Below are positions 41,584 through 60,614 of a stretch of 64,000 bases of DNA, piece after piece. Location: assembly GCA_035559535.1 (NCBI GenBank), contig DATMBG010000042.1:1-64000 (forward strand). The letters run 5' to 3'. The position numbers and the translations under genes were made by a program. Under the pieces are notes generated by a model. That model had not been told where the DNA came from and made no database searches. It saw nothing but the letters and a program-made list of their open reading frames with translations. This DNA is from Candidatus Limnocylindrales bacterium. GTDB lineage: Bacteria > Moduliflexota > Moduliflexia > Moduliflexales > JAUQPW01. Every line of letters begins with the position of its first letter. The stretch's first letter is position 1.

Positions 41584-41611
41584 TAACCATTCGCCTGCTT
41601 TTAGGATTTCT
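41584..41611 (+). promoter_or_regulatory. Candidate ECF sigma promoter, copy 1, at the head of the metal island
   Basis: TAACCATT-N11-AGGATTTCT, repeated with identical spacing at 42507-42534. Confidence 0.6.
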
Positions 41612-41711
41612 TTAAATGAAAGGGAGAAAGATGGGGGTTTAATAAAGTGACCGATGAAAAACCCATATCTTGCGTAAAACCTTTTTAATTTTAAGGAAGG
41701 AGGTTGAGGAT

Positions 41712-41768
41712 ATGCTCCGCAAACGATGGATGCTCCGCGCGGTTGCACGTTGCCGCGAGGGTTGTTAA
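41712..41768 (+). CDS. Candidate 18-aa leader peptide MLRKRWMLRAVARCREGC
   Basis: AGGAGG SD 8 nt upstream; C-terminal CxxxC; embedded in a long nested inverted-repeat region. Confidence 0.5.
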   Translation: MLRKRWMLRAVARCREGC

Positions 41769-41916
41769 CCTGGGTCCTGGGTATGACGTTAAACTGCCCA
41801 GAAGAAGATAAAGGACCCAAACCAGATCGGTGAAGGGGTTTTTATGGCAAACGCGAGCAAGACGACCGGAGATTTAATTTGGAGCGAAGGATATCTGGGA
41901 GTCTAAACGTCAGGAA

Positions 41917-42348
41917 ATGTCAAAGGCCCTTTTGAAAAAAATGGGAATTCTAGGGACCTATTTTTCTACCACTTTTGCCCTGGGTTGCTGCGGATTTGGT
42001 CCGTTTCTTTATCTGGTGTCAGGGCTTTCGGCTCTAGGTCTGGGGTTCTTGGCTAATTTGTCGTTACCGATTCTGTATACCTCCTTGGGAATGACGGTAG
42101 TCGGGCTTTTGATCTCCTATCGCCATCATCGCCATCCTTTACCCTTCATCTTAGGTCTGGTTGGCTCCGGTATGATTCTCTATCCTTTCCATGAAGCCCT
42201 GGATGTCTGGATTTTCCGGATTTTTTTCTCTACAGGCCTGGCTCTGTTAACCCTGGGGGTTATTTGGGACTTGATAAATCCCAGGAGATGGCTGCATAAA
42301 GGATTGAGACAAGGAGAAGGCTGGACCCCTTCCCTACTACGAAGGTAG
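41917..42348 (+). CDS. MerC-like mercury transporter
   Basis: Four TM segments, Cys pair in TM1 (LGCCG), SYRHHRHPLPFILG loop. Confidence 0.7.
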   Translation: MSKALLKKMGILGTYFSTTFALGCCGFGPFLYLVSGLSALGLGFLANLSLPILYTSLGMTVVGLLISYRHHRHPLPFILGLVGSGMILYPFHEALDVWIFRIFFSTGLALLTLGVIWDLINPRRWLHKGLRQGEGWTPSLLRR

Positions 42349-42506
42349 AGGTTGATGACTTCTCAGTTACGTTCTTCTCGTTGAATCTGCCTCGCTCTTT
42401 ACTTCCACTGAGATTTTGCCGATCTGTTCCAATCGAAATCACTCACCTGGTTTAGAGTCGGTCAGGTTGCCGGGTTAAAAAATTTAAAATTTTTTCCCAT
42501 AGATGA

Positions 42507-42534
42507 TAACCATTTTCATGTTTTAAGGATTTCT
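42507..42534 (+). promoter_or_regulatory. Candidate ECF sigma promoter, copy 2, directly upstream of the ECF gene
   Basis: TAACCATT-N11-AGGATTTCT ending 31 nt before the sigma ATG. Confidence 0.6.
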
Positions 42535-42565
42535 ATTTACAAAGTAGGTAAAGCCATAGGGGATC

Positions 42566-43150
42566 ATGGGGTATTCGTTTAATAAAATGACCGATGAAGA
42601 GCTCATGGCTCAAGTTCAGAGGGGGGATCAGGCTGCCTTTGAGGAATTATTCAAACGCTACGATCGAAAAATCTTCAATTACTTCCTTCGTTACCTGGGA
42701 GATGAAGAGTTGGCTAAAGACCTTTTTCAAGAAACCTTCCTCCGGGTGTTTCAATTCAGCAAGTCCTATAAGCCGACCACTCACAGTGGACGTTCCTCTT
42801 CTTTTGCAGCCTGGCTCTATACCGTTGCCCGGAATGTGTATAGAAAACAATGGGGACGAGAACCGGTTGAGGGGCGTATGGGAGAGTCCACGTGGGAGAT
42901 GTTAGAAGAAGTTCCAACCCCTAACGCCACGCCTCAGCAGGCAAGGGCCGATCAGGAATTGGTGGAAAAGATCAAACAGGCCCTGGACGCCCTTCCTGAA
43001 AGCCAGCGGGAGGTGGTGATCCTTCATAAGTATCAGGGACTCAGTTATCCTCAAATCGCTCAAGTCCTGGGATGCTCGATAAGTTCTGTGAAGCAAAGGG
43101 CTTTCAGAGCCTATCAGAGCCTCAGGCAGCAATTAGCCGAATATGCCTAA
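42566..43150 (+). CDS. ECF RNA polymerase sigma factor
   Basis: TDEELM, GDQAAFEEL, DLFQETFL, FAAWLYTVARN, LPESQREVV..GLSYPQIA. Confidence 0.93.
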   Translation: MGYSFNKMTDEELMAQVQRGDQAAFEELFKRYDRKIFNYFLRYLGDEELAKDLFQETFLRVFQFSKSYKPTTHSGRSSSFAAWLYTVARNVYRKQWGREPVEGRMGESTWEMLEEVPTPNATPQQARADQELVEKIKQALDALPESQREVVILHKYQGLSYPQIAQVLGCSISSVKQRAFRAYQSLRQQLAEYA

Positions 43151-44084
43151 AGAAGAAGGTGAAACGAACATGTGTAACTCCATTGTTGAACAACTGCCCG
43201 CTTATATCGCCGGGGAGCTGGGGGCTGAAGAGAGGGGAGAAGTAGAAAGACATCTGGCTCACTGCGTCTCCTGCACTTCAGAGCTTAAAGCCTTTCAGAG
43301 AACCTGGGATCTGCTGGATCAATGGGAGGATGTGGTCCCATCTCAGGAGCTTCGGAACAGTGTCCTGGCTCAAGTTCAGAAATTAACCGATGCCAAAAGG
43401 ACCAGAAGAGTCGATGGGTGGAGGTACTTTAAAGGCTTTTCCCACATTGTGTATGGCACCTTGACAGCCGTCCTTTCTGTGTTGCTTCTGGTTAGTAAGG
43501 GCGACCCGGCGGGTCGCCCCTACACAGAACCGTTAACCCTTGAGTTTATTCTGGGCTTTAGTGTACTCTGGACCGGCCTTTATATCCTGGCTTTCTGGTT
43601 GGCCGCCGGGAGGGGAGATCCGACAGTTTCACCTGTAAACTTCGATAAAGTCTTTGGACCTGTAGACTTAGCCCGTATTACCTATGTAGGATTGGTTGCC
43701 ATTGTCATTTCCCTGGTTATCTCCTGGCTGGTTCCCATCCACAGTGTCGTAAAATTCTGTCTAACCCAACCCGGCTTGCAGGGGATCAAGGATAAAATCT
43801 CCATAACCGGGTTCTATTTTCTGTTTGGAGGATTGTATGCCTGGATTCCCTTGCTGATGGTAGCTTCCTTTGAAGGAAGAAAAGTCTCTGGGAGCCCTGT
43901 CAGCTACGGGGTATTAACCGGGGTTATCTTTGTGCTCTTAATGGTACCGGGAATTTTCCTTCAATGTGGCTCTTTAACCCTGGGTATGCTGGTAAGTTGG
44001 ATCTTAGGGACGGCATTGGGATCCATGGCCGGGGGTGTTACCGGCTATTGGATCGCGTTCCGGACCCGGGAGGTTTCCTTATGA
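43143..44084 (+). CDS. Zinc-binding (zf-HC2/ZAS) anti-sigma factor with multi-pass membrane domain
   Basis: HLAHCVSC (HxxxCxxC); overlaps the ECF stop codon; about 6 TM helices with two loop Cys. Confidence 0.82.
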   Translation: MPKEEGETNMCNSIVEQLPAYIAGELGAEERGEVERHLAHCVSCTSELKAFQRTWDLLDQWEDVVPSQELRNSVLAQVQKLTDAKRTRRVDGWRYFKGFSHIVYGTLTAVLSVLLLVSKGDPAGRPYTEPLTLEFILGFSVLWTGLYILAFWLAAGRGDPTVSPVNFDKVFGPVDLARITYVGLVAIVISLVISWLVPIHSVVKFCLTQPGLQGIKDKISITGFYFLFGGLYAWIPLLMVASFEGRKVSGSPVSYGVLTGVIFVLLMVPGIFLQCGSLTLGMLVSWILGTALGSMAGGVTGYWIAFRTREVSL

Positions 44085-44320
44085 CCGAACAAACCTGTAA
44101 TCGGCTCATGAAAACAGGAATGATTGGAGCCATCCTTGCGGCTATCTGCTGTTTTACCCCGGTTTTGGTTATCTTACTGGGCTTGGTGGGACTCAGTACC
44201 GTAGTAGGCTACCTGGACTATGTTCTCATTCCGGCCCTGGGAGCATTTGTGATTCTGGCCGCGTATGCGGTCATTAAAAAGAGACAGTTAGCCTGTTCCG
44301 ATATTCCTAAGGAGGTTTAG
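44081..44320 (+). CDS. merF: MerF mercury transporter
   Basis: GAILAAICCFTPVLVILLGLVGLS..GYLDYVLIPAL; start ATG 44081. Confidence 0.9.
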   Translation: MTEQTCNRLMKTGMIGAILAAICCFTPVLVILLGLVGLSTVVGYLDYVLIPALGAFVILAAYAVIKKRQLACSDIPKEV

Positions 44321-44323
44321 CCG

Positions 44324-45157
44324 ATGAAAACGATTACGACTTTTTCAGCTTTGATTCTCTTTTTAATAGGATCCTTTGTTTTACAGAATATGGTTGCAGC
44401 GGACGTCCCGCTTCAAAAAACAGTTCTCAAAATCCAAGGCATGGTCTGCGAAGCATGTCCGCCCAAGATTAAAAAAGCCCTGGAAGGGTTAGATGGCGTG
44501 AAGAAAGTAGAGGTTAGCCTGGAGAAGGCCGAAGCCTATGTGGAATCGGAACCGGGAAAAGTTACCACCGAACAGATGATACAGGCAGTGGACCAGGCCG
44601 GATTTAAAGCTTCTCCGGCAGCAGAGAATTTTTCAGAGATAACCTTGAAGGTGGAGAATATCAAAGGACCCGAAGATGAGCTTAAGATCAAGCCGGCCTT
44701 GGAGAAGATAGAAGGGGTGAGAAAGGCTTTAGTCGATGCCGAGAAAAAAGAGGTGTTTATAGACTATCTAAAGGATAAGGTAACGGTTCAACAGCTCACC
44801 CAGTCTTTAACCAAGCTAGGCTATCCCCCTCTTTCCCCCTTAACGACCCAGGTAGGGGATTTCCTGGTAACCTTACAGATCCATCCAAAACCTATCAAAG
44901 ACCAGGAAGTCCATTTTGACGTAATCTTACAGAGCTCTGATGGGAAACCTGTCTCCGATGCAGAGGTTCAAGTGGATTTGAGTATGCCCGGGATGACCAT
45001 GGGGGAGATGCGATTTAAAGCGGAACCCGCCGGAGAGGGACGGTATACAGGAAAAGGGAAGTTTTCCATGGAGGGCAAATGGAGAATTGCCATCCGAATT
45101 AATCAAGGGGGACAGAAAAAAATCGCCAACTTCGATATGGAGGTTCCTGAGCAGTAG
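44324..45157 (+). CDS. Exported MerP-like HMA protein: HMA (GMVCEAC), Cys-less HMA and YtkA/FixH-like domain
   Basis: Signal peptide; GMxCxxC; second ferredoxin-like repeat with GPED; LSMPGMTMG...GRYTG..FSMEGKW. Confidence 0.82.
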   Translation: MKTITTFSALILFLIGSFVLQNMVAADVPLQKTVLKIQGMVCEACPPKIKKALEGLDGVKKVEVSLEKAEAYVESEPGKVTTEQMIQAVDQAGFKASPAAENFSEITLKVENIKGPEDELKIKPALEKIEGVRKALVDAEKKEVFIDYLKDKVTVQQLTQSLTKLGYPPLSPLTTQVGDFLVTLQIHPKPIKDQEVHFDVILQSSDGKPVSDAEVQVDLSMPGMTMGEMRFKAEPAGEGRYTGKGKFSMEGKWRIAIRINQGGQKKIANFDMEVPEQ

Positions 45158-45210
45158 GGGGTAGGGCGTTGGCCCGTTGGCCGGCAAATACCCAAAAAGG
45201 GGGTGTTCCC

Positions 45211-45735
45211 ATGAAAGATTTAAAAAAAATTTTATTAAGCCTTTTATTAACCTTTACTCTCATAGCTGCCTTCCTTCCTAAGGCAACTGTTGCCGAAATT
45301 GAAAAGGCTGTTATTAAAGTCAAGGGAACTTTGAGGTGTGTATTCTGAGCTTATGGGATTGACAAATCCGTGGGACGCCTGGAAGGCGTCAAGAAATCTG
45401 AGACCGATTGGAAAGCCGGTTTAACCGTGGTTACCTTCAAGGAAGGGGCCTCGTTGGATCCCAATCAACTGGCAAAAGCCATGGACGCAGCCGGATTTGG
45501 AGCGGATGAGATTACCCTTATCGCCAGGGGAAGCCTGACCGAAGAGAAAGGCTATCCGGCCTTTAAGGTCAGTGGCAGTAATCAAATTTTTCTGCTGGCA
45601 GAGAACGAAGTCCTCAACCAACTTAAAGCCTTGGGCTCCGGGAAAGAAGCAACAATCACAGCCAAAGTGGAGATGAAAGAAGAGGGGACTCCATTTACCC
45701 TGATCCTTGAAAAGGTTGAGTCGCCTACCCTGTAG
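45211..45735 (+). CDS. Exported HMA domain protein; candidate selenoprotein (CVFU, U46)
   Basis: ATG 45211 with signal peptide reads ...VKGTLRCVF*AYGIDKSVGRLEGV; TGA 45346-45348 is in frame with ORF 45370-45735 and aligns with Cys in in-window paralog 58613 (PYCAYGLEK). Confidence 0.85.
45349..45390 (+). promoter_or_regulatory. Candidate SECIS hairpin(s)
   Basis: GGATT-GACA-AATCC, then perfect GACGCCT-GGA-AGGCGTC after the UGA. Confidence 0.5.
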
Positions 45736-45821
45736 GTTGAATTTTGTCTGTTATCCCTGGTCGATTGTCCGGGGTTAAAGGCAAAGAACAAAAAACAACG
45801 GACAACAGACCAGGTTGAGTA

Positions 45822-46883
45822 ATGGGAGAGTTTCTTAAAGAAGTTCTAATATTTATCTATGCCACAGCTAACCATACCTTTTTAATGATGTATTGGGTTT
45901 GGCTTCCGGCTTTTCTCCTCTCCGGCTACCTGTTCACCCGATGGCATCGGGATCCGGTTGATAAGATTCTGCAGGATCGGACCTTGACCTTTAACTCTCT
46001 TTTGCAGGCTGTCAAGTTAGGTGCCTCTTATTCCACGGACCGTCGTAAGGGGCTGGCGGCTGTTGTGGGTTTATTTGAAAAAGGGGTGGTCCCTTTTCCC
46101 CTGATTTTCGCGTTCTGGCTCGCAAGCCAGCACCTGATTCTTTATTCCCTCTCCTTTTTCATGGCCCTGGTTGGAGGCGAGTTCTTTGTGGGACCTGCCG
46201 TGGCCGCGTTGGCTATGATAAGCTTGACAACCCTTTTCTTGAGCCAGATTCCCGAGAATACCTGGGAAGAGGCCAGGAAGCGGTTACGTATCTCCTCACC
46301 CTCCATCCCCCTCTCCCAAAGCTTTGGGAGAGGGGACATAAGGGGTGTGGGTAACCCTCTTCCACAAAGCTGGGGAGGATATTTTCGATATGTAGGCAGG
46401 GAGATCAAAGTGATCTGGAAGAACGTCATCTTGGGGATTATTCTGGCAGGGTTTATTGCGGCCGCCGGACGAACCGAATGGTGGATAGATTTCTCAACAG
46501 TGGGCGGTGGCGGAGTTTTCACGGAAATTTTAAACGTAATTCTCGGAGCGACTATTTCTCTGGTCATCCCCTTATCCCCGGTGGGACATCTCTTCGTAGC
46601 TGCTTTCCTTTGGAAAACCTATACCGTAACCTACGGAGGGATTTTGGGCTTTTTTCTGGCCAGCGCCCTGGACCTCAGAAATTTCTGGGCTTATGGGAAG
46701 CTCCTGGATCCCAAACTGGGGTTGACCGTGGAAGCTTTGGGATTTGCCTCGGCCATCCTGGGTGCTTTGGTCGTGGTGGTCCTGCTCCGGATCGTGGGAT
46801 TTGAAGTAACCCACGCTCCGTTGTTCCATGAGTACGTGGATAAGATCATGATGTTCTTCTCCCTGGGGGGAAAGATGATGTAA
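45822..46883 (+). CDS. Predicted permease (DUF318/ArsP-like architecture)
   Basis: Two TM bundles separated by a soluble loop; IWKNVILGIILAGFIAA, YGGILGF. Confidence 0.6.
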   Translation: MGEFLKEVLIFIYATANHTFLMMYWVWLPAFLLSGYLFTRWHRDPVDKILQDRTLTFNSLLQAVKLGASYSTDRRKGLAAVVGLFEKGVVPFPLIFAFWLASQHLILYSLSFFMALVGGEFFVGPAVAALAMISLTTLFLSQIPENTWEEARKRLRISSPSIPLSQSFGRGDIRGVGNPLPQSWGGYFRYVGREIKVIWKNVILGIILAGFIAAAGRTEWWIDFSTVGGGGVFTEILNVILGATISLVIPLSPVGHLFVAAFLWKTYTVTYGGILGFFLASALDLRNFWAYGKLLDPKLGLTVEALGFASAILGALVVVVLLRIVGFEVTHAPLFHEYVDKIMMFFSLGGKMM

Positions 46884-46899
46884 AAGGAGGTAAGGAAAA

Positions 46900-47811
46900 G
46901 TGAAAAAGGTTATGCTTTATATGGCTCTATCCAGCTTTTTAATCCTGGGAAGTGCTTTCTCAACCCCTCACCCCTTTGGTCCCCCTCTCCCAAAGCTCTG
47001 GGAGAGGGGGAAGGGGGTGAGGGCTGCCACCCCAGATTGCCGAATTGCCTTCCATACCAAGAGGGGAGAGAAAGAATTTAGAATTTCTACCATTCGAATA
47101 GACGGAACAGATATAAAGGACCTGACCTCGGGCCACTGGGACAGTAATCCCTGGTTTTCTCCGGATGGAAAGCAAATCGTCTTTGACCGGGATGAGGAGA
47201 TTTATATCGCGAACACCGATGGAAGTGAGCCGAGAAATCTGACCCATAACCCAAAAGCTAACTCCTGCCCGACCATCGCTGGAGGTAAGGTCGCTTTCCA
47301 GACGAACCGGGATGGGAATTTTGCGATCTATGTGGTGAATACGGATGGAACCGGACTGCAACGATTGACCCAGGAACCATCTAACAATGCCTGTCCGGCC
47401 TTCTCTTCCGATGGAAAGCGACTCGCTTTTGTCTCGGATCGGAACGGCCCCATGGAGATCTACGTAATGAATATTGACGGAACCGGACTCAAACGGCTCA
47501 CTTCTAACGCTGGAAATAACATGGATCCCGCCTTCTCCCCCGATGGGAAAAAGATCGTCTTTACTTCGGACCGAGATGGAAACTTTGAGATCTACCTCAT
47601 GGACAGCGACGGCCATAATCAAACCCGGCTTACCTATAACAATACGTCCGATATCCAACCTGCTTTCTCTCCCGATGGGAAACAGATTGCCTATGAGCGG
47701 GGTGGCAATATTTATGTGATGGACCTTGAGAAACGAGAAGAAAGGCCACTGACCCAGGGAGCTGTATACCGGGGCGGTCCTTCCTGGGATCCTAACTGTG
47801 TTTCTGAATAA
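46900..47811 (+). CDS. Exported TolB-like PD40 beta-propeller protein
   Basis: Repeated PAFSPDGKxIxFxSDRDGNFEIYxM motifs; signal peptide. Confidence 0.88.
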   Translation: MKKVMLYMALSSFLILGSAFSTPHPFGPPLPKLWERGKGVRAATPDCRIAFHTKRGEKEFRISTIRIDGTDIKDLTSGHWDSNPWFSPDGKQIVFDRDEEIYIANTDGSEPRNLTHNPKANSCPTIAGGKVAFQTNRDGNFAIYVVNTDGTGLQRLTQEPSNNACPAFSSDGKRLAFVSDRNGPMEIYVMNIDGTGLKRLTSNAGNNMDPAFSPDGKKIVFTSDRDGNFEIYLMDSDGHNQTRLTYNNTSDIQPAFSPDGKQIAYERGGNIYVMDLEKREERPLTQGAVYRGGPSWDPNCVSE

Positions 47812-47827
47812 GGAAGGATAGAGTGCT

Positions 47828-48436
47828 ATGAAAAGTTTTAACCTTTTTTCAACCCTTCGACCAGCCTGTCCTGAGCGAAGCCGAAGGGCTCAGGACGCAG
47901 CCTGGCTGAGTATAGCTCTAACGCTTTTGATCTCGCTGTTTTCTTTACACCCAAGTTCGGTTTATGCTGAGGACCTTCGGAAAGTGACCATCAAGGTAGG
48001 TTGGATGCTCTGTGAAAAGTGACCTCCGGCGGTGAAAGCAGCTTTGGAGAAGCTGGAAGGTGTAAAAAAAGTTGAGGTCAGTCTGGAGAAGGCTTCAGCT
48101 TATGTGGAGTATGAGGCTAGAAAGGTCACTCCGGATCAGATGGTAGCGGCAGTGAACCAGGCGGGATATATGGCGTTTCTTCCTCCCAAGGATCTGGTGG
48201 AGATCACGTTAGCCATCGAAGGTCTCAAGGGTCCTGAGGATGAGCTGAAAATCAAACCGGCCCTGGAGAAGGTGGATGGGATCAGGAAGGCTTTGGTGTA
48301 TACAAAGGAAAAGGAGGTCTATGTGGAATATATGAAAAATCAGATTACCCTTCAACGGATCACTGAAGAGATCTCGAAACTGGGCTATAAGGTGATCCTG
48401 CCTTCTGTTGAAGGGAAAGAAAGGTGCCAAAGATAA
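47828..48436 (+). CDS. Exported MerP-like tandem HMA protein; candidate selenoprotein (CEKU, U65)
   Basis: ORFs 47828-48022 and 48032-48436 are in frame; WMLCEK*PPAVKAALEKLEGVKKVEVSLEKA aligns with paralog 44324 GMVCEACPPKIKKALEGLDGVKKVEVSLEKA. Confidence 0.9.
48023..48055 (+). promoter_or_regulatory. Candidate SECIS hairpin
   Basis: CTCCGG..GAAA..TTGGAG stem-loop, or the alternative CAGCTT-TGGAG-AAGCTG. Confidence 0.45.
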
Positions 48437-48457
48437 AATTTAACGAAGGTTTGATTC

Positions 48458-48691
48458 ATGAAATCGACCCAGGAAAAGAGAACCCTGAAGGGATATTTGC
48501 TTTTGGTCACGGCTTTTATTACCTGTCCCTGCCATCTCCCTTTAACGTTGGTTTTACTAGGGGGAACAGCTTGGGGTGGGTTTATCGCAGCAAACCAGAC
48601 GCTAATTTTTGTTGTAGCTCTGGTTTATTTCCTTTTTGCATTAGTTTTTGGTTTGAAAATCCTTAGCAAAGAAGTGGAGGATCGGTCATGA
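48458..48691 (+). CDS. merE: MerE-like mercury/methylmercury transporter
   Basis: GYLLLVTAFITCPCHLPL..LLGGTAWG, the MerE CPCHLP signature. Confidence 0.85.
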   Translation: MKSTQEKRTLKGYLLLVTAFITCPCHLPLTLVLLGGTAWGGFIAANQTLIFVVALVYFLFALVFGLKILSKEVEDRS

Positions 48692-48785
48692 GTTCCTAGT
48701 CCCTAGTCCTTTGCCTATAGTCCACACTCAGGTGAAGGACAAGGCATGAAGAACCCAAGTCGATCTCTAAAAGGAGGGTATTCAC

Positions 48786-49025
48786 GTGACGTCTAAAAAA
48801 GTCATTGTCTATAGTTCCACCGGTTGAGCCGCTTGTAAGCAGACGAAAGAGTTTCTTTCGCAAAAAGGGGTTGCGTTCACGGACATTAACGTTAGCGAGA
48901 ATCCGGAAGCTCTGGATGAAATGGTTCAGAAGGCTGGAGGAACCATGGCAACGCCTACGGTCCTCATCGGGGATGAGGTGGTCATAGGATTTAATCCCAA
49001 ACGATTGATGGAGCTTTTGGCTTAG
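48786..49025 (+). CDS. Glutaredoxin/NrdH-like protein; candidate selenoprotein (UAAC, U14); missing from the ORF track
   Basis: AAGGAGG SD, GTG start, MTSKKVIVYSSTG*AACKQTKEFLSQKGVAFTDINV...ATPTVLIGDEVVIGFNP; TGA 48825-48827. Confidence 0.9.
48844..48860 (+). promoter_or_regulatory. Candidate SECIS hairpin of the glutaredoxin
   Basis: Perfect CGAAAGA-GTT-TCTTTCG; loop G is 23 nt after the UGA. Confidence 0.55.
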
Positions 49026-49102
49026 GTGGCTTGTTGGTTAGGTCGTCAGGTTGGTCACCAGTAACCTGACGACCTGGCTACCCAAGCAAAGGAGGTCATT
49101 CT

Positions 49103-49762
49103 TTGAAAGCAGGAAAATTTAGTCTACTATCTACGCTGATGGCATTGATTTGTTGTTTTGGCCCTATAGCCCTATTGGCTATAGGGCTGGGAAGTGCCGG
49201 ATTAACCGTTGGCTTGTTAAAATATAAAAGGGTTTTTCTCTCTCTAGGTCTAACAGCTTTGGCTTTTTCCTATTATCTATACTTTCGAGAGAAGACCCGC
49301 TGTACCACCCAGGGATGCCAGATGGTCAACACGAGGTTTAACAAGGCCTTGTTGATCTTTTCAACCCTCACGGTCCTGACCTTTGTGGTTTTTTCTTATC
49401 TCCCTTACTCCCATGCCAATCATCCGTCATCGGACCAGGCAGCTTTGGTTGCCGCCGCTTCTACGCCTCAAGTGCTCTATTTTTGGGAACCCTGTCCCAC
49501 CTGCGCAGTCTTAAACCCCCTTGTAGAAAGCCTGGAGAAAACCTACCAGGGAAAAGTACGCTTCCGGTGGGTCAATATGATCACAGATGATGACTCGCTC
49601 CGGCTGGCCCGGCAGGAAAATCTAAAGGCAATTCCTTATCTGGTCTTTAAATCCGCGGATGGGCAGCCGGTGGACTATATCGTTGGTTTTTTTACTTACG
49701 AAACAGCCAAAGAGAAGATTGAAAATCTTTTAAAAAACAGAAAGCAAGATCAGAGAGGTTGA
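49103..49762 (+). CDS. MerT-like transporter fused to a thioredoxin domain
   Basis: ICCFGPIALLAIG, loop CTTQGC, three TMs, then WEPCPTC...AIP thioredoxin fold. Confidence 0.8.
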   Translation: MKAGKFSLLSTLMALICCFGPIALLAIGLGSAGLTVGLLKYKRVFLSLGLTALAFSYYLYFREKTRCTTQGCQMVNTRFNKALLIFSTLTVLTFVVFSYLPYSHANHPSSDQAALVAAASTPQVLYFWEPCPTCAVLNPLVESLEKTYQGKVRFRWVNMITDDDSLRLARQENLKAIPYLVFKSADGQPVDYIVGFFTYETAKEKIENLLKNRKQDQRG

Positions 49763-49842
49763 CGGTTAGAGAGGAAACGCAGTTATTCTCTCATCGCAAC
49801 CTATCTGAATAATCCAATAACAGCTAAGGAGGGATTAAGAAT

Positions 49843-53529: not shown

Positions 53530-53638
53530 GTCAAACGTCTCGTTTGATTAGGAAAAGTCAGGGATCAGATCCAGAGAACCTGGAATGAGTACTTTCTGAT
53601 CTCTCTTACCTGTGAGACCTGGGAAGAGGGGGACTCTT

Positions 53639-56062
53639 ATGAATGAAAATATCTTGACAAACGATGGGCAGGCCTTTGGCTACCCAGGGATTCCACCCAG
53701 GTGGACCTTGAGTTCAAAGGAAGGGGTGGGAACGGCCTATTCCACGTCCAGCCGGGTATGGTTCACTATATCCCATGGCATCCTCACTGAGGTTTACTAT
53801 CCCACCATAGACCGTCCGCAGATCAGGGATCTCCAATTTCTCCTCAGTGACGGCGAAACCTTTTTTCATGAAGAAAAGCGCAACCTGGTTAGCGAAGTCG
53901 AGTACCTCGAGCGAGACACCCTGGGCTATCGCATCGTGAGCACCGACCCTGAAGGGCGATATCGGATCATCAAGGAGATTCTCTCTGATCCTCATCAATC
54001 TTGTGTGTTAGTACACGCCCGAATCGAAGCTATTGAGGCTTCAGAAGATTGGTTAAACCGCTTGCAGGTTTATGTATTGATGGCGCCTCATCTGGAGGTG
54101 GGCGGATGGGGCAACTCAGCCCGGAGGTTTCATGCTGCCGGCTGTGACCTCCTCGTAGCATGGAAAGGCCGTACCTATCTGGCAATGGGAGTGAATGTGG
54201 GGTTCACCAAGACATCTTGCGGCTATGTGGGTTTCAGTGATGGCTGGCAAGACCTCCACGACAACTTTCAGATGGACTGGCAGTTCCAACGGGCTGAGAA
54301 TGGGAATGTCGCGGTCATCGGGCAAATAGACCTTGCGAAAGACAAAGAGTTTACGCTAGGATTGGCCTTCGGTGACGGACTCCACGCAGCAGTAACCACC
54401 CTCACCCAATCACTGAGCGTACCCTTCGCCGATCATCGAGAAAAATACATCGCCCAGTGGTACCGTGTCTGTTGCGATATACCGGAGCTGGATAAGTACT
54501 CCGGGGACGGAGGACGGATCTATCGGATCAGCCATAGCTTGCTGCTGGCCCACGAAGACAAAACCTTTGCGGGTGCCTTGATCGCCTCAGCGAGCATTCC
54601 TTGGGGGGACGCCAAGGGGGATGAAGACCTCGGTGGCTATCATCTGGTATGGACCCGCGACATGGTTCACAGTGTTACAGGATTGCTGGCCTGCGGGGAC
54701 CTGATAACCCCCCGCAGAGCCCTTATCTATCTGGCCTGCTCGCAGCGTCCAGATGGGGGTTTCCCACAAAACTTCTGGCTGGATGGAACGCCTTACTGGA
54801 GCGGCATCCAACTCGACGAGGTCGCCTTCCCTGTGATCCTCGCCTGGAAGCTCTGGAAGGCTGAAGCCTTGGGTGAGTTCGATCCTTACCTCATGGTCAG
54901 GGCCGCGGCCACTTACTTGATTCGTCAAGGTCCCATGACCCAGCAGGAGCGCTGGGAAGAGAACAGCGGATACTCCCCCTCGACCCTTGCAGTGACTATT
55001 GCGGCTCTCATCTGCGCAGCCGACTTTGCCAGATCTCGTAGGCAGGAAAAGCTCGCCGTTTTCCTGCAGGATTATGCGGACTTCCTGGAGTCCCATGTCG
55101 AGCGCTGGACGGTGACGACCCAGGGGGGTCTATTGCCAGAGATTCCCAGGCATTACATCCGCATCCATCCGACGGATATCCACGATCCCGCTCCGGACGA
55201 AGATCCCAATCGTGGCATGCTGGCAATTCGCAACCGGCCACCGGGGGAGCCCTGGGAGTTTCCGGCCAAAGACATCGTCGATGCCGGTTTCCTGGAATTG
55301 GTCCGTTACGGCCTACGCAAGCCAGGAGACCCGCTTATCGAGGATTCGCTCCAAGTCGTGGACGCTGTGCTCAAGGTAGATACCCCCTTCGGTCCCTGCT
55401 GGCATCGCTACAACCATGACGGATACGGCCAGCGTCCGGATGGCGGCCCATTTGAAGGATGGGGAAAGGGACGGGCCTGGCCGCTTCTCACAGGGGAGCG
55501 GGGCCACTATGAGCTTGCAGCTGGCCGCGACGCGAGACCATACATCCGCGCGATGGAGGGATTCGCTTCCAGAGGTGGCCTGCTTCCTGAGCAGGTGTGG
55601 GATGAAGCAGACCGGCCTGAGATCAAGATGTACCTGGGGCGGCCTGCGGGCTCGGCCATGCCTCTGATGTGGGCCCACGCCGAATATATCAAACTGTTAC
55701 GGTCTGTTGCTGACGGCCAGGTGTTCGACCTGATCCCAATTGTAGCCGAGCGCTATCTGGTCGGACGGGGGCGCAAGGACCTTGAGGTGTGGAAGCCAAA
55801 CCGTCAGGTCCGGCAAGTGGTACCGGGGCAGGTGCTGCGGGTTCAGGCACCAGCAGCTTTCTGGCTGCACTGGACGGATAATGAGTGGCAGGACGTTTAC
55901 GATACACGGTCAACGCCAACGGCCCTTGGTATCGAGTTCGTGGATATCCCAATTGCGTTAGAGCAGCGTGCCCCGATCCGCTTTACCTTCCGATGGGTGG
56001 AAGGAGATCACTGGGAAGGTAAAGATTATGCAGTGACCATTGACCACAAGACACCGCGATAA
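53639..56062 (+). CDS. Glycoside hydrolase family 15 (glucoamylase/glucodextranase-like)
   Basis: TEVYYP, ASASIPWG, GYHLVWTRD, QERWEE, LPEQVW, MPLMWAHAEY. Confidence 0.9.
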   Translation: MNENILTNDGQAFGYPGIPPRWTLSSKEGVGTAYSTSSRVWFTISHGILTEVYYPTIDRPQIRDLQFLLSDGETFFHEEKRNLVSEVEYLERDTLGYRIVSTDPEGRYRIIKEILSDPHQSCVLVHARIEAIEASEDWLNRLQVYVLMAPHLEVGGWGNSARRFHAAGCDLLVAWKGRTYLAMGVNVGFTKTSCGYVGFSDGWQDLHDNFQMDWQFQRAENGNVAVIGQIDLAKDKEFTLGLAFGDGLHAAVTTLTQSLSVPFADHREKYIAQWYRVCCDIPELDKYSGDGGRIYRISHSLLLAHEDKTFAGALIASASIPWGDAKGDEDLGGYHLVWTRDMVHSVTGLLACGDLITPRRALIYLACSQRPDGGFPQNFWLDGTPYWSGIQLDEVAFPVILAWKLWKAEALGEFDPYLMVRAAATYLIRQGPMTQQERWEENSGYSPSTLAVTIAALICAADFARSRRQEKLAVFLQDYADFLESHVERWTVTTQGGLLPEIPRHYIRIHPTDIHDPAPDEDPNRGMLAIRNRPPGEPWEFPAKDIVDAGFLELVRYGLRKPGDPLIEDSLQVVDAVLKVDTPFGPCWHRYNHDGYGQRPDGGPFEGWGKGRAWPLLTGERGHYELAAGRDARPYIRAMEGFASRGGLLPEQVWDEADRPEIKMYLGRPAGSAMPLMWAHAEYIKLLRSVADGQVFDLIPIVAERYLVGRGRKDLEVWKPNRQVRQVVPGQVLRVQAPAAFWLHWTDNEWQDVYDTRSTPTALGIEFVDIPIALEQRAPIRFTFRWVEGDHWEGKDYAVTIDHKTPR

Positions 56063-56098
56063 CCAGACACTTAAGTGACCCCAAAAGGAGGTAAATCC

Positions 56099-56752
56099 AT
56101 GGAAAAGAAAAAATTAGACCTGGAGGAGATAGTTGCCCTGATAAGGAATTCATTACCAAAACTCAGCGCAGAAGAGCAAAAGGTTTTTGTACAAATATAT
56201 CGGCTTTTGGCCGTAGGTCAACCCGTGCCCCATGACAAAAAGCCACAAACGCTTCACGTCTCAAATGACGTTGTAAACGATATTCTGAGTCGATGGTGGG
56301 GGATCTATTATGATGAAAAAGATCGTATCATAGGGTTTTGGGGACTGACCCTAAAACCCATGTCACACCGTTTTGAGGTCAACGGTCATACGCTGTACAC
56401 CTGGTGCGCCTGGGATAGTTTATTTATCCCTGAGATTATCCAGAAAACTGCTCGTGTAGAGTCTACCTGTCCTGTGACGGGAGCCAAGATCCGGCTTACG
56501 GTAACCCCGAAAGACGTCAAGCAACTCGACCCGGCTGGTGCCGTTATGTCTTTTATAACACCAGAAGCTGCCAAAATTCGCGAGAATGTGATTGCCAACT
56601 TTTGCCACTACGTGTATTTTTTCAGTTCTGCGGAAGCAGGTACTACCTGGATTTCAAAGACCCCGGGAACCTTCCTTCTTTCCATAGATGAGGCCTATTA
56701 CCTTGGGCGAAAGAAAAATGAGTTTCAGTTCAAGGAGGCTTTAGTAATGTAG
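56099..56752 (+). CDS. merB: Organomercurial lyase
   Basis: YTWCAWD (catalytic Cys/Asp), STCPVTG, FCHYVYFF; GGAGG SD before ATG 56099. Confidence 0.9.
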   Translation: MEKKKLDLEEIVALIRNSLPKLSAEEQKVFVQIYRLLAVGQPVPHDKKPQTLHVSNDVVNDILSRWWGIYYDEKDRIIGFWGLTLKPMSHRFEVNGHTLYTWCAWDSLFIPEIIQKTARVESTCPVTGAKIRLTVTPKDVKQLDPAGAVMSFITPEAAKIRENVIANFCHYVYFFSSAEAGTTWISKTPGTFLLSIDEAYYLGRKKNEFQFKEALVM

Positions 56753-56786
56753 CCAATATAATAAATCTGATGAACTTAAAAAACCC

Positions 56787-56818
56787 TTGACCTTCCAGCA
56801 TACTGGAAGGCTTATCCT
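56787..56818 (+). promoter_or_regulatory. MerR-family promoter/operator
   Basis: TTGACC-N20-TATCCT with perfect dyad CCTTCCAG-CATA-CTGGAAGG overlapping the -35 and spacer. Confidence 0.85.
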
Positions 56819-56886
56819 AAAAGTATCCTGGGAATCATGAACGGCTCTAAAGAAATTGTTTTATAGAAGTAAGGAGGTGATCCTGG

Positions 56887-57039
56887 ATGGCTCTCAAGGA
56901 AGGCGAGATTTACCAATGTCCCGATCCTAATTGTGGGTGTGAAATTACCGTGACGAAGGCACCTGCGTCAGGCAAGGGCGGTAATTTACCACCGCGTTGC
57001 TGCTGCGGTAAAGAGATGATGCTAAAGAGTAAGCAATAA
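56887..57039 (+). CDS. Small Cys-rich desulforedoxin-like protein (50 aa); missing from the ORF track
   Basis: AAGGAGGTGA SD; MALKEGEIYQCPDPNCGCEITVTK...PPRCCCGKEMMLKSKQ. Confidence 0.85.
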   Translation: MALKEGEIYQCPDPNCGCEITVTKAPASGKGGNLPPRCCCGKEMMLKSKQ

Positions 57040-57173
57040 AGACCGTCGCAGAAGGGGAAAATCCCCTTCTGCTACCCTGAGAATTATTCACAATATTCAG
57101 GGATATTCTCCGATTTCTAGACATAAACAACTCAAATCAGCGTGTAACATAAAAAAGAAAGAGAGCAAGAAAT

Positions 57174-58178
57174 ATGAATAACTCTAACAAAGGAAAAATT
57201 ATCTTTGTCTCCATGGCTTTGGTCCTTCTGGCCATAACCGTGATTGGGCTCTTTTCCCTGGCCACGTCTCCGGCTCAGGCCGCCAGTCTCACGCTGGCTT
57301 ACGTAGCCGGACTTTCAATGATCCTGTTACCGTGTACGTTACCTGCTCTGCTTGTAATCGTTCCACTATCCATGGGCAAGGGCTATCAAAAGGGTTTTCT
57401 TATCGCTTTGTTCTTTTCCATTGGAATGGCGATCACACTGACTGCCTATGGAGTAGCTATGGCAGCCCTAGGGAAGATCCTCTATCTGGACCGGGCGACC
57501 CTTTTGATGTGGTTGGTCGCGGGACTGGCGGCTTATCTCTTTGGGCTGTCGGAGTTAGGATTAATTTCCTATAAAGGACCGTCCTATTCCGGGTCTCTGC
57601 CTGGTTTTATGGCAGGATCACCGACTAATTATTTCAAAGCCTTTTTGATGGGAATTCTACTTGGAAACGCCGGGATCGGCTGCCCCAATCCGGCCTTCTA
57701 TGTGTTGCTAACCTATATAGCTGGAATAGGAAACCTTATGACAGGAGGGATTCTTGGACTCATTCATGGTCTTGGCCGCGCCACACCTCTCCTGGCCATC
57801 TCGATCCTGGCCATTTGGGGAGTCAATTCCATGGGGTGGATCCTTAACAAGAAGGAGGCACTGCAACAACTGGTGGGGTGGGGGCTTATTGGTTTTGCCG
57901 CTCTCATCACCCCAAAACCCATCTTCGGCCATGCCTGGTGGGAAGAGTCTATTTTTCATAAAGTTTGGAATAGGGTAGTAATGATTATCGGTGGTGAGCA
58001 GATTGCCGAAAGCGCTTATGTGGAAAAGCAACTGGGCGATATGCCAGTTCATGACCCGTTGCTGCTCTATGGCCCCTGGATCTTTCTGGCCCTGCTAATT
58101 GTAATTCCAATCCTTTGGGGCTATGCTAAAAACCTTCAAAAGAAGGAGGTAAATAGGTATGTGGAAAAAACCGCTTAA
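57174..58178 (+). CDS. CcdA/DsbD-TM family protein
   Basis: AGLSMILLPCTLP and GIGCPNP transmembrane Cys pair. Confidence 0.8.
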   Translation: MNNSNKGKIIFVSMALVLLAITVIGLFSLATSPAQAASLTLAYVAGLSMILLPCTLPALLVIVPLSMGKGYQKGFLIALFFSIGMAITLTAYGVAMAALGKILYLDRATLLMWLVAGLAAYLFGLSELGLISYKGPSYSGSLPGFMAGSPTNYFKAFLMGILLGNAGIGCPNPAFYVLLTYIAGIGNLMTGGILGLIHGLGRATPLLAISILAIWGVNSMGWILNKKEALQQLVGWGLIGFAALITPKPIFGHAWWEESIFHKVWNRVVMIIGGEQIAESAYVEKQLGDMPVHDPLLLYGPWIFLALLIVIPILWGYAKNLQKKEVNRYVEKTA

Positions 58179-58362
58179 GATTTTGGGTGTGATAGCACTG
58201 CTGGTTCTGATGCCGGTTCTGGTGCAGGCTCATGGCGATGACCAGGTAACGGTAAATAGCCTCTTCGGCCCACTCCTAGCCATTTTTACGATTTTCATCC
58301 TTGTCCCTCTAGGTAAGGTCGCTATTCGAGGGATCAAGAAGCAGAAGGAGGAGAGAATATGA
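58159..58362 (+). CDS. Small hypothetical membrane protein
   Basis: AAGGAGGT SD; signal-like segment ending VQA-HGDD plus one TM. Confidence 0.65.
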   Translation: MWKKPLKILGVIALLVLMPVLVQAHGDDQVTVNSLFGPLLAIFTIFILVPLGKVAIRGIKKQKEERI

Positions 58363-58616
58363 TTCATCTGAAACTACTGACCACCTCTGGTTGTTCTCGT
58401 TGCGACCGGGCCAAACAAGTTATCGAGAAGGTCTGGCCTGATTTTCCCGATGTGAAAGTGGAGATCATCAACCTCATAGATCACGCGGAGCTTGCTGTCC
58501 AGTATGGTGTCATGGTCTCCCCAGCCCTGGTTATCAATGAGAAGGTGGCCTTTGTGGGTGGAGTCAGCGAGAATCAGTTGAGAGAAAAACTCATGCAAGT
58601 CGGAGAGTACCCATGA
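58359..58616 (+). CDS. Small thioredoxin/glutaredoxin-like protein
   Basis: TSGCSRC, YGVMVSPALVIN. Confidence 0.85.
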   Translation: MIHLKLLTTSGCSRCDRAKQVIEKVWPDFPDVKVEIINLIDHAELAVQYGVMVSPALVINEKVAFVGGVSENQLREKLMQVGEYP

Positions 58617-58927
58617 AAGTCTTTTATGTGTCACTGACGGTGATATTCTTACTTGCCCTTGCTGTGACGATCTTGTTAAGATCGGGCTTCCTTTTGGCAG
58701 GAGAGGAAGAGATTATCCTGTCCGTTCCTGGCATCCCTGGCCCCTACTGTGCTTACGGCCTGGAAAAGCGGTTATTAGAGCTGGAGGGGGTTCAAAGGGT
58801 GGATTTGCTTTGGAAAGAAGAGAAAATCCGGGTGGTCGTTGCTCTGGGGAAGAGGGTGACTCTTGCCGAGATACGGGAAGCGATCCAGCGAGCTGACTAT
58901 CCCTATCCTTACACTATCTCACCATGA
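58613..58927 (+). CDS. Membrane-anchored HMA protein with a single Cys (GPYC)
   Basis: VPGIPGPYCAYGLEKRLLELEGV. Confidence 0.72.
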   Translation: MKVFYVSLTVIFLLALAVTILLRSGFLLAGEEEIILSVPGIPGPYCAYGLEKRLLELEGVQRVDLLWKEEKIRVVVALGKRVTLAEIREAIQRADYPYPYTISP

Positions 58928-59906
58928 AAAGATTTGGGATTCTTATAGCTCTGGCGATTGTTCTAGCAGTCCTTTTCTTTAGCCTGTTTCCGATAGATTC
59001 GCTTCGCTTACTACAAGTTATATCTCCCAAAGAGACGTATCGGGCTATCTTGCAGTGGGGCCAGGAAGGAGAAGGAGCAGGAAACTTTCGTCACCCTATG
59101 GGGCTTGCTTGGGAAGGCGGATTTCTTTACGTGGCTGATGCAGAAAACGGAGCGATTGAAAAGTTCCAAGACGACGGATCCTTTGTGCCCAATGGAAGGG
59201 TTTTAAAAGACCGGTAGCTGTAGCAGCGGTAGGAGATTTCGTTTATGTCGCCGATTTTCTCGCCGATCAAATTTCTAAGCTCCATAACGATGGTACCCTA
59301 ATTGTTCAATGGGGGCAGCATGGAAAAGGCGATGGGGAATTTGACGCCCCTACTGGAGTCGCGGCAGACCACTACGGTCAGGTTTATGTGACCGATTTTT
59401 ACAATCACCGGGTCCAGAAATTTACCGCTGATGGAAAATTCCTGCTCCAGTGGGGAAGCAACGGCCGTTGGAGTGGGAGATTCCATTACCCTACTGATGT
59501 GGCCGTCAATAACCAAGGCGAGGTCTTTGTGGTGGATGCCTACAACCACCGGATCCAGAAATTTACTCGAGATGGACACTATCTTACCAAATGGGGTGGG
59601 ATCAGTTACGGCCTTTCAGGGAAATGGCCTGGCTGGTTTCGTCTGGCTAAGGCAGTGGCAATTGATCAGGAAGGCTATGTTTATGTGGCAGATGCCTTCA
59701 ATCATCGGGTGCAGAAGTTTACGGGCCAGGGGAAACTGGTTAGCTGGTGGGGAGGACTTGGCAGTGACCTGGGCCAGATTCACTATGCGGCTGGAGTTGC
59801 TGTAGACACGCAGAGATCTGTCTTCGTGAGCGATTTCTTCAACAACCGAATTGAAAAATTTGTCTCAATGGTTCCAAAACAATCGAAAAAGAATATTATT
59901 CCTTAA
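58924..59906 (+). pseudogene. NHL-repeat protein interrupted by a single-base frameshift near 59187
   Basis: NHL repeats in both 58924-59217 and 59388-59906; the second frame is open from AQWKGFKRPVAV at about 59187. Confidence 0.75.
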
Positions 59907-59924
59907 TACCTTTAAAGGATCATA

Positions 59925-60614
59925 ATGCACGGAACTCTCATGGAAATCTGGAGCGGAACGTCCGCTGCGGGTAGTATCATACTGCCTTTCTTGCTAGGCC
60001 TTTTGGGTTTTATCGAGCCCTGCTCGCTAGGGGCCAATCTCATCTTCCTTCAATACCTGTTACCCTTTACCCAGCGTGCCCGGATCCTTCAAAGCTTGCT
60101 TTTTACACTGACCCGAGCACTTTTTTTAAGCCTTATCGGACTGCTTGCGGCTCTCCTAGGCCAACAGTTCATTGGGATTCAAAGCCATTACATCCTCTTT
60201 TTGGGCACGTTGTATATGGTTTTCGGTTTGATCATTTTAATGAAAGGCCCTGTATGGAGCTTCACATTACCTTTTCCACGTCTCTCTGAGAGTTCCATGA
60301 CAACTCTGCTGGGAGGAGCCTTCGGTCTGGCGGTCCCGGCTTGTGCCAGTCCCCTGATCTTGGCCCTGCTTGGGAGGGCAGCTCTCTCGGGCCAGCTCTT
60401 GTTTGGGTTTTCAAGCCTCTTTGTCTTTGGTCTGGGACTGTCTCTTCCACTGGTGATAGCCGTCTACTCGGAAAAGGCCTGGGAAACAATGATACGTGTT
60501 GCCCGTCGTTATTCCTACAGCACGCAATATCTCATCGGAGGCATATTGGTTTTTGCTGGCTTCTACACCCTCTTCACCCGGAGTGGAAGCCTGCAAGCGA
60601 TTCTACAAAAATAG
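59925..60614 (+). CDS. CcdA-like cytochrome c biogenesis/DsbD-TM protein
   Basis: GLLGFIEPCSLG and VPACASP. Confidence 0.82.
   Translation: MHGTLMEIWSGTSAAGSIILPFLLGLLGFIEPCSLGANLIFLQYLLPFTQRARILQSLLFTLTRALFLSLIGLLAALLGQQFIGIQSHYILFLGTLYMVFGLIILMKGPVWSFTLPFPRLSESSMTTLLGGAFGLAVPACASPLILALLGRAALSGQLLFGFSSLFVFGLGLSLPLVIAVYSEKAWETMIRVARRYSYSTQYLIGGILVFAGFYTLFTRSGSLQAILQK

Follow-up and report, generated by a model that had tools for sequence, protein, structure and literature searches.

The window analysed here is a stretch of 64,000 nt of contig DATMBG010000042.1 (C42), in a bacterial genome of 5.6 Mb that is 95.8% complete; positions refer to it unless another locus is named. On its plus strand, about 26 co-directional genes run from 41.9 to 60.6 kb. 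This island combines mercury resistance (mer) genes with a sigma factor of the extracytoplasmic function (ECF) type, a membrane anti-sigma factor and three genes with an in-frame TGA, which are candidates for selenocysteine (Sec, U) insertion. A Pfam scan of 25 plus-strand open reading frames (ORFs) at 41917–60614 assigned a family at E<=0.01 to 22 of them, and NCBIfam profiles with curated equivalog cut-offs were used alongside Pfam for the island proteins. Both collections bear out the genes named in this region by an earlier interpretation made from the letters and their translations (the sequence-only reading). The core of the island, at 41.9–56.75 kb, is conserved and common to G001, a genome of the same genus that is colinear with positions 40001–56754 at about 90% nucleotide identity. 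The features are given below with scores in bits and cut-offs in brackets; TM denotes a transmembrane helix.

41555–41615, +, promoter-like repeat 1, 5' of merC: A/T palindrome, GTAACC, N15, GGATTTCT; kept in G001
41917–42348, +, MerC-like membrane transporter: PF03203 31.9 (27.6)
42480–42540, +, promoter-like repeat 2, 5' of the ECF sigma gene: A/T palindrome, ATAACC, N15, GGATTTCT
42566–43150, +, ECF sigma factor: Sigma70_r2, Sigma70_r4_2, Sigma70_ECF; TIGR02937 109.9 (42.9)
43143–44084, +, anti-sigma factor, ZAS (HxxxCxxC) plus six predicted membrane helices: zf-HC2 43.2
44081–44320, +, MerF: PF11431 71.9; NF033565 95.4 (50)
44324–45157, +, exported HMA-HMA-YtkA protein, Cys form CEAC: HMA 66.3, YtkA 55.1; NF041115 107.9 (95)
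45211–45735, +, exported HMA selenoprotein candidate 1, C-V-F-U, TGA at 45346–45348: HMA 30.7
45822–46883, +, ArsP-type permease: PF03773 55.3
46900–47811, +, exported PD40/TolB-like beta-propeller: PD40 151
47828–48436, +, exported double-HMA selenoprotein candidate 2, C-E-K-U, TGA at 48020–48022: HMA 66.4; NF041115 94.9 (95)
48458–48691, +, MerE-like small membrane protein with a CPC motif: PF05052 37.7 (22.8); NF010310 47.1 (80)
48786–49025, +, cytosolic glutaredoxin-like selenoprotein candidate, U-A-A-C, TGA at 48825–48827: PF00462 58.3 (22.9)
49103–49762, +, MerT-like membrane protein fused to thioredoxin: MerT 33.2 (32.9), Thioredoxin 29.6; CC in TM1, CPTC in the thioredoxin part
49843–50433, +, membrane-anchored TlpA/ResA-like thiol:disulfide reductase: AhpC-TSA 108.7, Redoxin 92.3; ResA subfamily 141.2 (170)
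50615–51100, +, exported DUF302 protein: PF03625 56.9
51189–51998, +, membrane protein without a Pfam or NCBIfam match; atlas neighbours partly DUF6789, a lead only
52090–53529, +, MerA core enzyme without NmerA: TIGR02053; ORF open from 51976
53612–56062, +, GH15 glucan 1,4-alpha-glucosidase: TIGR01535 743.1 (741.9)
56075–56752, +, MerB organomercurial lyase: PF03243 115.7; NF009710 193.6 (193, borderline)
56887–60614, +, variable accessory module: Pfam families, listed further below

By hydropathy, all HMA proteins, TlpA, the PD40 protein, the DUF302 protein and the NHL protein of the accessory module carry one N-terminal hydrophobic segment, and the glutaredoxin-like and Thioredoxin_3 proteins carry none.

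The two mercury enzymes can be named with their active sites. MerA scores 542.7 bits against TIGR02053 (equivalog cut-off 454.45; 542.8 bits in the genome search). Its alignment with PDB 5x1y (402 bits) places both the redox-active pair (GGTCVNxGC) and the terminal SCCA. A redox-active CxxxxC together with a C-terminal vicinal Cys pair defines MerA, while the NmerA domain is common in MerA and not universal. Pfam gives no HMA (NmerA) match in the frame, and the TIGR02053 match begins at residue 49 of the long ORF. Because a palindromic repeat occupies 52014–52082, the start of MerA is most likely 52090 rather than 51976. Compared with 3f2g, MerB keeps the catalytic Cys-x-x-Asp (WCAxD) and the later active-site Cys (FC). 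The MerC, MerE and MerT proteins lie above Pfam cut-offs and far below NCBIfam equivalog cut-offs (the MerC equivalogs score about 31 against cut-offs of 140–170), so the label '-like', which the sequence-only reading had chosen, is apt. For the HMA proteins of the island, CopZ and MerP models score equally well. Among 72,556 plasmids, the best matches of the double-HMA protein are merP and the merA N-terminus (32–34% identity), and the candidate Sec form of this protein is 52% identical to its Cys paralog at 44324.

The textbook example of metal sensing by MerR-type regulators is mercury resistance, and the canonical mer operon of Tn21 and Tn501 is a MerR-controlled merR-merT-merP-(merC/F)-merA-(merB)-merD-merE. 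The locus resembles these operons in the Cys pairs of MerA, the Cys/Asp/Cys of MerB, the importers of MerT, MerC, MerF and MerE type, and the MerP-like exported HMA proteins. It differs from them in several respects: MerA is without NmerA, and the cluster is chromosomal, between dnaK and histidine kinase genes. A search of the whole genome with the MerR model TIGR02051 gave no match on C42, hence none adjoining the structural genes, and three sub-threshold matches on other contigs, the best at 102.9 bits against a cut-off of 150.85 on contig C43. The absence of merR and merD had been claimed from the letters; it holds for merR, and for merD it means that none was reported on the contig, no search being aimed at MerD alone. 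Added to the canonical set are the ECF pair, TlpA, the MerT-thioredoxin fusion, DUF302 and putative Sec in three proteins. These gene identities support the view, already taken in the sequence-only reading, of a chromosomal mer cluster for Hg(II) and organomercurials, here without an adjacent MerR.

At the head of the co-directional cluster stand the sigma and anti-sigma genes, with an overlap of 8 nt. As expected of an ECF/ZAS pair, the sigma factor has regions 2 and 4 only, and the next gene encodes an anti-sigma domain with HxxxCxxC. In an alignment of 22 anti-sigma sequences, H37, C41, C44 and C275 are invariant (22/22), and Cys206 is present in 15/22 when the alignment is read by eye. Hydropathy gives six hydrophobic segments. 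An AlphaFold model built with the 22 sequences (mean pLDDT 87.1) locates Cys275 at the turn between TM5 and TM6 and Cys206 in a short helix that follows TM3. Given a cytoplasmic anti-sigma domain, both residues are predicted by this model to lie on the outer face.

The N-terminal domain of the model matches chain 3hug_B of RslA, which is in complex with sigma domain 4 (Foldseek probability 0.99, TM-score 0.64 by target, 67 columns, E 1.1). The protein shares HxxxCxxC with the ZAS anti-sigmas RsrA, RslA and ChrR. In contrast to these soluble or single-pass proteins, it carries a six-helix membrane domain with an invariant Cys; this domain has no solved relative and no Foldseek PDB match at E<=0.001. 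An exhaustive HMMER search returned 1061 proteins at E<=0.001, 84 of them at E<=1e-10, and the best 150 of the 1061 include many full-length relatives at 25–36% identity; a word-index protein search gave just 5 near-identical relatives. None is encoded in the 72,556 plasmids, and none of the 22 family members matches DUF1109/NrsF in Pfam at E<=1.

The closest analogy that we notice is with the sigmaF/NrsF pair of Caulobacter crescentus, which is induced by Cr and Cd and recognizes the promoter GTAACC-N16-CGAA; NrsF is a six-helix anti-sigma in which two periplasmic Cys are required to hold the sigma factor (PMC3511200; this and most other papers below are cited from excerpts of their text). 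Both systems have the anti-sigma as the next gene, a GTAACC -35 element, a spacer close to 16 nt, an association with toxic metals, six predicted membrane helices and two outward Cys, the latter predicted here (C275 in 22/22, C206 in 15/22). The GTAACC element occurs in the related loci described below and at the merC site of the window, and the sigma site of the window reads ATAACC. The systems differ in that NrsF has only a 25-residue N-terminus and belongs to DUF1109 (PMC3511200), whereas the anti-sigma here has a full ZAS domain. The -10 element is CCGTTT or GGATTTC instead of CGAA, and mer genes take the place of the sigmaF regulon as the linked genes. This likeness is one of gene order, promoter and predicted topology.

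The same pair recurs beside mer genes in other lineages. Loci were fetched with one conserved peptide pattern of the anti-sigma, derived from a 6-sequence alignment (the 22-sequence alignment is too diverse for a locus search), which yielded 6 species-genome and 19 metagenome loci. After leaving aside L055, a contig of G001, and L061, a compact relative of the cluster at 79% identity, 23 other-lineage loci are left. In 13 of the 23, the fetched DNA holds MerA, MerB, MerC, MerT or HMA genes, which is a raw count of co-occurrence. The other 10 are without mer-type genes, and 9 of those are contigs of <=4.1 kb.

MerA exceeds the TIGR02053 cut-off at L058, L059 and L060 (509–520 bits), and MerA-like genes of 43–58% identity are found at L066, L069, L071, L072 and L075. 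MerTP or MerT is present at L059, L060, L069, L071 and L072, two MerB genes at L062, MerC at L063, and HMA genes at L057, L065 and L076. The record titles label these metagenome-assembled genomes as Deltaproteobacteria, Proteobacteria and Calditrichaceae. In L061, the gene order equals that of the window: ECF sigma, anti-sigma, MerF, the glutaredoxin with its TGA, MerT-thioredoxin, TlpA, MerA and MerB; the three exported HMA genes, ArsP, the PD40 gene, MerE and GH15 are missing. An ArsP_1 gene also follows merA in L058. Of the synteny of ECF, mer and TGA-HMA genes that the sequence-only reading proposed to check, the ECF and mer part is found both in the colinear L061 and in the 13 other-lineage loci.

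A shared promoter motif accompanies the pair. GTAAC-N15-CCGT occurs in 12 of the 14 regions 5' of the sigma gene, with the consensus GTAACC-N14-CCGTTTAAT, also written GTAACC-N14-CCGTTT. Across the 150,930 bases of the 23 loci there are 24 copies, whereas 200 shuffles average 1.24 copies and never exceed 4. Of the 24, twelve stand 33–53 nt before the sigma gene, 10 on the opposite strand within 420 nt, and 2 elsewhere; at several loci, the opposite-strand copies lie just 5' of divergent MerT, MerTP or MerB genes. Such a distribution would be expected of an ECF sigma factor that regulates its own gene and also activates the adjoining mer operon.

The window has a motif of its own. Its extended form (A/T palindrome, (G/A)TAACC, N15, GGATTTCT) has exactly two sites in 5.6 Mb, one preceding merC and the other the sigma gene; these are 2 among 23 genome-wide matches of the short pattern. 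Between the window, G001 and L061, the blocks of the motif are kept while the spacers vary, and G001 keeps both sites. The A-run/T-run palindromes at 41555–41575 and 42482–42503, located 10–12 nt 5' of each -35-like element, might act as an UP element or be bound by a second regulator.

Because the same sigma/anti-sigma family adjoins mer genes in other phyla with a shared promoter motif, comparison of these loci supports the view that the ECF link is no mere coincidence of this window. In this respect the ECF association proposed in the sequence-only reading has gained ground. On this basis, we consider it fairly probable that the locus is a MerR-free mer cluster run by an ECF sigma factor with a ZAS/six-helix membrane anti-sigma, to which selenoproteins are joined.

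Several observations weigh against this reading. The loci sample rests on a single peptide pattern and is biased and incomplete. Near-duplicates (L075 and L059, L076 and L057, L073 and L069) bring the independent lineages below 13. One locus of 10.7 kb, L068, has the pair without a mer gene, with DUF3179 and methyltransferase genes instead. The motif of the other loci was not found in the window, G001, L061 or L057, nor in L056, L058, L064, L076 and L080; its 27 genome-wide copies, 0 of them in the island, are judged to be at chance level. Support for the motif of the window comes from two sites and from close relatives, and the short form shows no enrichment (3 matches, 1.41 expected). Finally, a MerR-family regulator on C43 could act in trans.

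This regulator (G000:C43:70796–71179, L014) has Cys at positions 81, 118 and 130 and is followed by two small membrane ORFs. It gives substance to an alternative in which the ECF pair merely adjoins mer genes that are constitutive or are controlled by the C43 protein. A sigma-70 promoter and terminator scan of the island is no better than shuffles (14 promoter sites against 18.8 expected; 26 terminators against 24.4), and it is uninformative. We regard this bystander role as quite improbable, since the pair adjoins mer genes across several phylum-level labels and the shared bipartite motif fronts both the sigma gene and divergent mer operons. Moreover, the C43 regulator is of a generic type: the models MerR (102.9), CadR (100.2), CueR (97.7) and ZntR (similar) all score below their cut-offs, so that it is assigned to no metal-specific family.

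A different question is what the pair senses. Instead of mercury, it might answer to envelope stress of a general thiol-reactive or soft-metal kind (Cu, Ag, Cd or oxidants), with the mer genes as one part of a broad island. ZAS anti-sigmas and NrsF do respond to thiol-reactive agents and several metals (PMC3511200), the island holds YtkA, ArsP, a metallothionein-like ORF and HMA proteins that are equal for CopZ and MerP, and in L068 the regulator keeps company with DUF3179 and a methyltransferase rather than mer genes. However, the genes that recur beside the pair elsewhere are specifically MerA (above cut-off), MerB, MerT/MerTP and MerC, and scans of the island and the loci gave no copper or cadmium efflux ATPase and no RND pump. 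A broad stress response of this kind therefore appears unlikely to us, and control of mer genes by the ECF pair is the reading that we follow below.

Three side observations concern the related loci. At L058:453–707, L059:10928–11179 and L060:10919–11173, the gene after the anti-sigma encodes 83–84 residues with a signal peptide, a CxxxxC motif and a C-terminal membrane anchor; this protein, which is in no known family, could be a co-sensor. At L062:1483–4364, the pair stands with a divergent operon made up of DUF3237 and two merB genes, and there is no merA in 14 kb. At L068:6293–7032, the DUF3179 gene beside the ECF pair appears to be split into two ORFs; the break may be a Sec codon, DUF3179 being a catalogued Sec family.

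The three in-frame TGAs, which had been read at 45346, 48020 and 48825, were confirmed directly on the sequence, and all three coincide with a conserved metal-binding or redox Cys. The decoding machinery that such codons call for is encoded in the genome: selA (622 bits), selB (408.6), selD (388.6) and a tRNA-Sec, and the selD gene itself holds a TGA. G001 keeps all three TGAs. Both checks that the sequence-only reading had named for the TGAs, decoding machinery and conservation in relatives, thus turn out in its favour.

HMA candidate 1 has only 2 database matches, both of them fragments that start after the TGA. In an alignment of 7 HMA proteins, its U aligns with the sole invariant Cys. Against G001, its codons 3' of the TGA show 22 synonymous and 11 non-synonymous changes, and the corresponding values of the glutaredoxin gene are 11 and 5. 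This mostly synonymous change implies purifying selection on the frames that follow the TGAs. The G001 ortholog of HMA candidate 2 is 85% identical and has 1 TGA.

The TGA of the glutaredoxin gene is kept beyond G001 as well. It is found in L061 (91% identity) and in L065, a distant soil contig with 46% protein identity, where a MerP-like gene and an ECF pair of the same kind adjoin the gene. A paralog at G000:C6:139309–139530 (L081:6307–6540), 58% identical and present in G001 too, has a TGA at the same active-site position. The island protein matches PF00462 with a U-A-A-C active site, the catalogued UxxC form, and falls below the cut-offs of TIGR02196 (78.4 vs 88.55) and NF041212 (64.6 vs 66). 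The HMA candidates fall short of the cut-off and the motif of the UxxU family NF041115: the double-HMA protein, with CxxU, reaches 94.9 against 95, and candidate 1 reaches 25.0.

Downstream of each UGA, a 7-bp hairpin begins at a distance of 19–28 nt. In the glutaredoxin gene (7 bp, 19 nt 3' of the UGA), 35/35 cells are paired in 5 sequences, with one compensatory change from A-U to U-A. Rfam at E<=5 gives no SECIS family and only chance miRNA-type matches on palindromic repeats.

Some of the evidence speaks the other way. The value of the glutaredoxin hairpin was reached by 113 of 500 shuffles of the five sequences. The hairpins of the HMA genes are not diagnostic, as a comparable hairpin occupies the same position in the Cys paralog, and the 60-nt folds after the two HMA TGAs have z-scores of only -1.7 and -1.9. 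Contigs of samples X3 and X5 join across 47801–48220 without most of the HMA candidate 2 gene. Since it is missing from a colinear contig of another sample, this gene is dispensable. The Sec-glutaredoxin paralog has a housekeeping context, between an SNF2 helicase gene and an ABC transporter; for this reason, a glutaredoxin-type selenoprotein is not mercury-specific by itself.

Could the TGAs be true stops, in pseudogenes or split genes, or assembly errors, so that no selenoprotein is made? Public gene calls do end HMA candidate 1 at its TGA, and the lack of an Rfam SECIS match points the same way. We reject this explanation as extremely improbable: the TGAs match the conserved Cys positions exactly, they are retained across independent assemblies at 46–92% protein identity, the frames 3' of them change mostly synonymously, and the genome has the full Sec machinery. 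Judged from these comparisons, all three TGA genes very likely encode selenoproteins, in which selenium would be incorporated at the ligand or redox position.

Individual Sec forms of these families, which the sequence-only reading mentioned, are indeed catalogued: MerT, an HMA metal-binding protein (UxxU), a P-type ATPase (UxxC) and a glutaredoxin (UxxC) (PMC9312934, PMC13188914). NCBIfam holds NF041115 for a metal-binding (seleno)protein with UxxU and NF045683 for MerT and MerT/CopZ-fusion selenoproteins, and the excerpts of a preprint describe other Sec-rich metal systems (10.1101/2022.07.06.499078). The proteins here share with the catalogued ones the HMA and glutaredoxin folds and a putative Sec at the metal-binding or redox Cys position. 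The HMA proteins differ in being exported, in having CxxU instead of UxxU and in their extra domains. In the searches run, HMA candidate 1 is confined to close relatives. A further difference is that both families, HMA and glutaredoxin, are found together inside an ECF-headed mer cluster.

Taking these results together, we propose how the system would work. The sigma factor would drive two similar promoters, before merC and before its own gene, and from the second promoter the co-directional genes, with short gaps, would be read as one operon as far as merB. On the model of Caulobacter sigmaF/NrsF, the anti-sigma would release the sigma factor when its Cys are acted on by a thiophilic signal, most probably Hg(II). 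The exported MerP-like HMA proteins would then bind periplasmic Hg, two of them with Sec as the second ligand (CxxU), and TlpA would keep the exported thiols and selenols reduced. The MerC-, MerF-, MerE- and MerT-thioredoxin-like proteins would import the metal. In the cytosol, the glutaredoxin-like selenoprotein (UxxC) may serve as a redox partner or hand-over protein for the NmerA-less MerA, MerB would cleave organomercurials and MerA would reduce Hg(II). The inducing signal, the incorporation of selenium, the roles of the selenoproteins and any gain in Hg capture from selenium are inferred here.

In its most specific form, which we put forward tentatively and hold to be somewhat short of even, this would be a MerR-independent mercury switch. 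The ECF sigma factor would be held by an anti-sigma whose outward Cys pair or ZAS zinc site binds Hg(II) directly, and would have its own promoter code (GTAACC-N14-CCGTTT and variants). Such a switch may have spread in uncultured lineages labelled Deltaproteobacteria, Proteobacteria and Calditrichaceae and in this small phylum, and in this genus it would be joined to Sec-containing MerP-like and glutaredoxin-like proteins for higher-affinity capture where sulfide and thiols compete.

The literature searched gave us no account of mer genes under ECF control. In the main text of the ECF reclassification paper PMC7826278 'mercur' does not occur, and a survey of mer genes counts MerR and MerD as regulators, with 'sigma' absent from its main text (PMC8261052). 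The most valuable outcome in our view is the mer-associated ECF/anti-sigma family with its promoter motif, a variant both of mer operons and of Cys-sensing ECF systems. If the reading is true, a second, sigma-factor-based mode of control shared by uncultured lineages would change how mer loci are recognized and annotated in metagenomes. The anti-sigma would be a new membrane-bound Hg sensor, and the pair would lend itself to a simple two-component reporter design. The selenoproteins would offer a case for what Sec adds to metal binding, as distinct from redox catalysis, with Sec and Cys paralogs of one exported HMA protein side by side as a natural control. Since public gene calls cut the three proteins at the TGA, as observed for HMA candidate 1, annotation currently misses them.

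Comparison with G001 indicates that the 19-kb island is not one uniform unit, contrary to the sequence-only reading, which had treated it as a whole. The genes after merB form a variable accessory module:

56887–57039, +, 50-residue Cys-rich ORF with eight Cys including a CCC run: weak MymT match, 21.8 bits (80)
57174–58178, +, DsbD_TM protein: Pfam
after DsbD_TM, +, 67-residue ORF with two TM
58359–58616, +, Thioredoxin_3 protein: Pfam
58613–58927, +, single-Cys HMA protein: 22.2 bits, below the cut-off of 24.8
58924–59906, +, NHL propeller with a frameshift: Pfam
59925–60614, +, DsbD_2 protein: Pfam

This 3.8-kb module (56.9–60.6 kb) is absent from G001 at the DNA level, with only 3 matches of about 40 nt. 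The slot after merB in G001 is taken by a different module (L080, G001:C64:3000–22700) with a second ECF sigma, two TlpA-like proteins, an FG-GAP protein, an outer-membrane protein, a radical SAM protein, a HEAT/cNMP protein and a second member of the anti-sigma family. Since the pairing of HMA and NHL genes recurs after the ECF pair in L057, a Calditrichaceae locus, we consider the accessory module probably related in function to the core and optional. Of the two partners in the idea that CcdA and TlpA keep the exported chaperones reduced, TlpA is a core gene. A reducing role of CcdA is no property of the conserved system, because the CcdA-like genes, the thioredoxin, the fourth HMA and the NHL gene belong to the module absent from G001. 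Of the overall interpretation in the sequence-only reading, the selenoproteins, the mer cluster and an ECF sigma factor in place of MerR are retained, while the CcdA link and the role given to selenium overreach.

The GH15 gene between merA and merB has a G+C content of 0.583 at 54–56 kb, compared with about 0.47 around it. It is present in G001 and missing from L061; for its G+C content and its absence from L061 we treat it as a passenger, probably an unrelated insertion. The NHL gene is read in two frames (58924–59217 and about 59218–59906) with a frameshift near 59200, which reflects either a pseudogene or a sequencing error.

The cluster is flanked by ordinary chromosomal genes: dnaK, an Nfo-like gene, nuo genes and histidine kinases. 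We considered a mobile-element origin; in a scan of 23 large flanking ORFs, none belonged to an integrase or transposase family. Within the own phylum (9 genomes), MerA above cut-off, the glutaredoxin and the full-length anti-sigma are confined to this genus, so an old acquisition of the cluster is likely.

Finally, G/C-rich palindromic repeats of the REP or MITE kind are located at 46299–46344, 46959–47029, 50444–50584, 52014–52082 and 60701–60792, and they recur in G001. The ArsP and PD40 frames contain two of them, translated as additional peptide, and another takes up the 5' end of the long MerA ORF.

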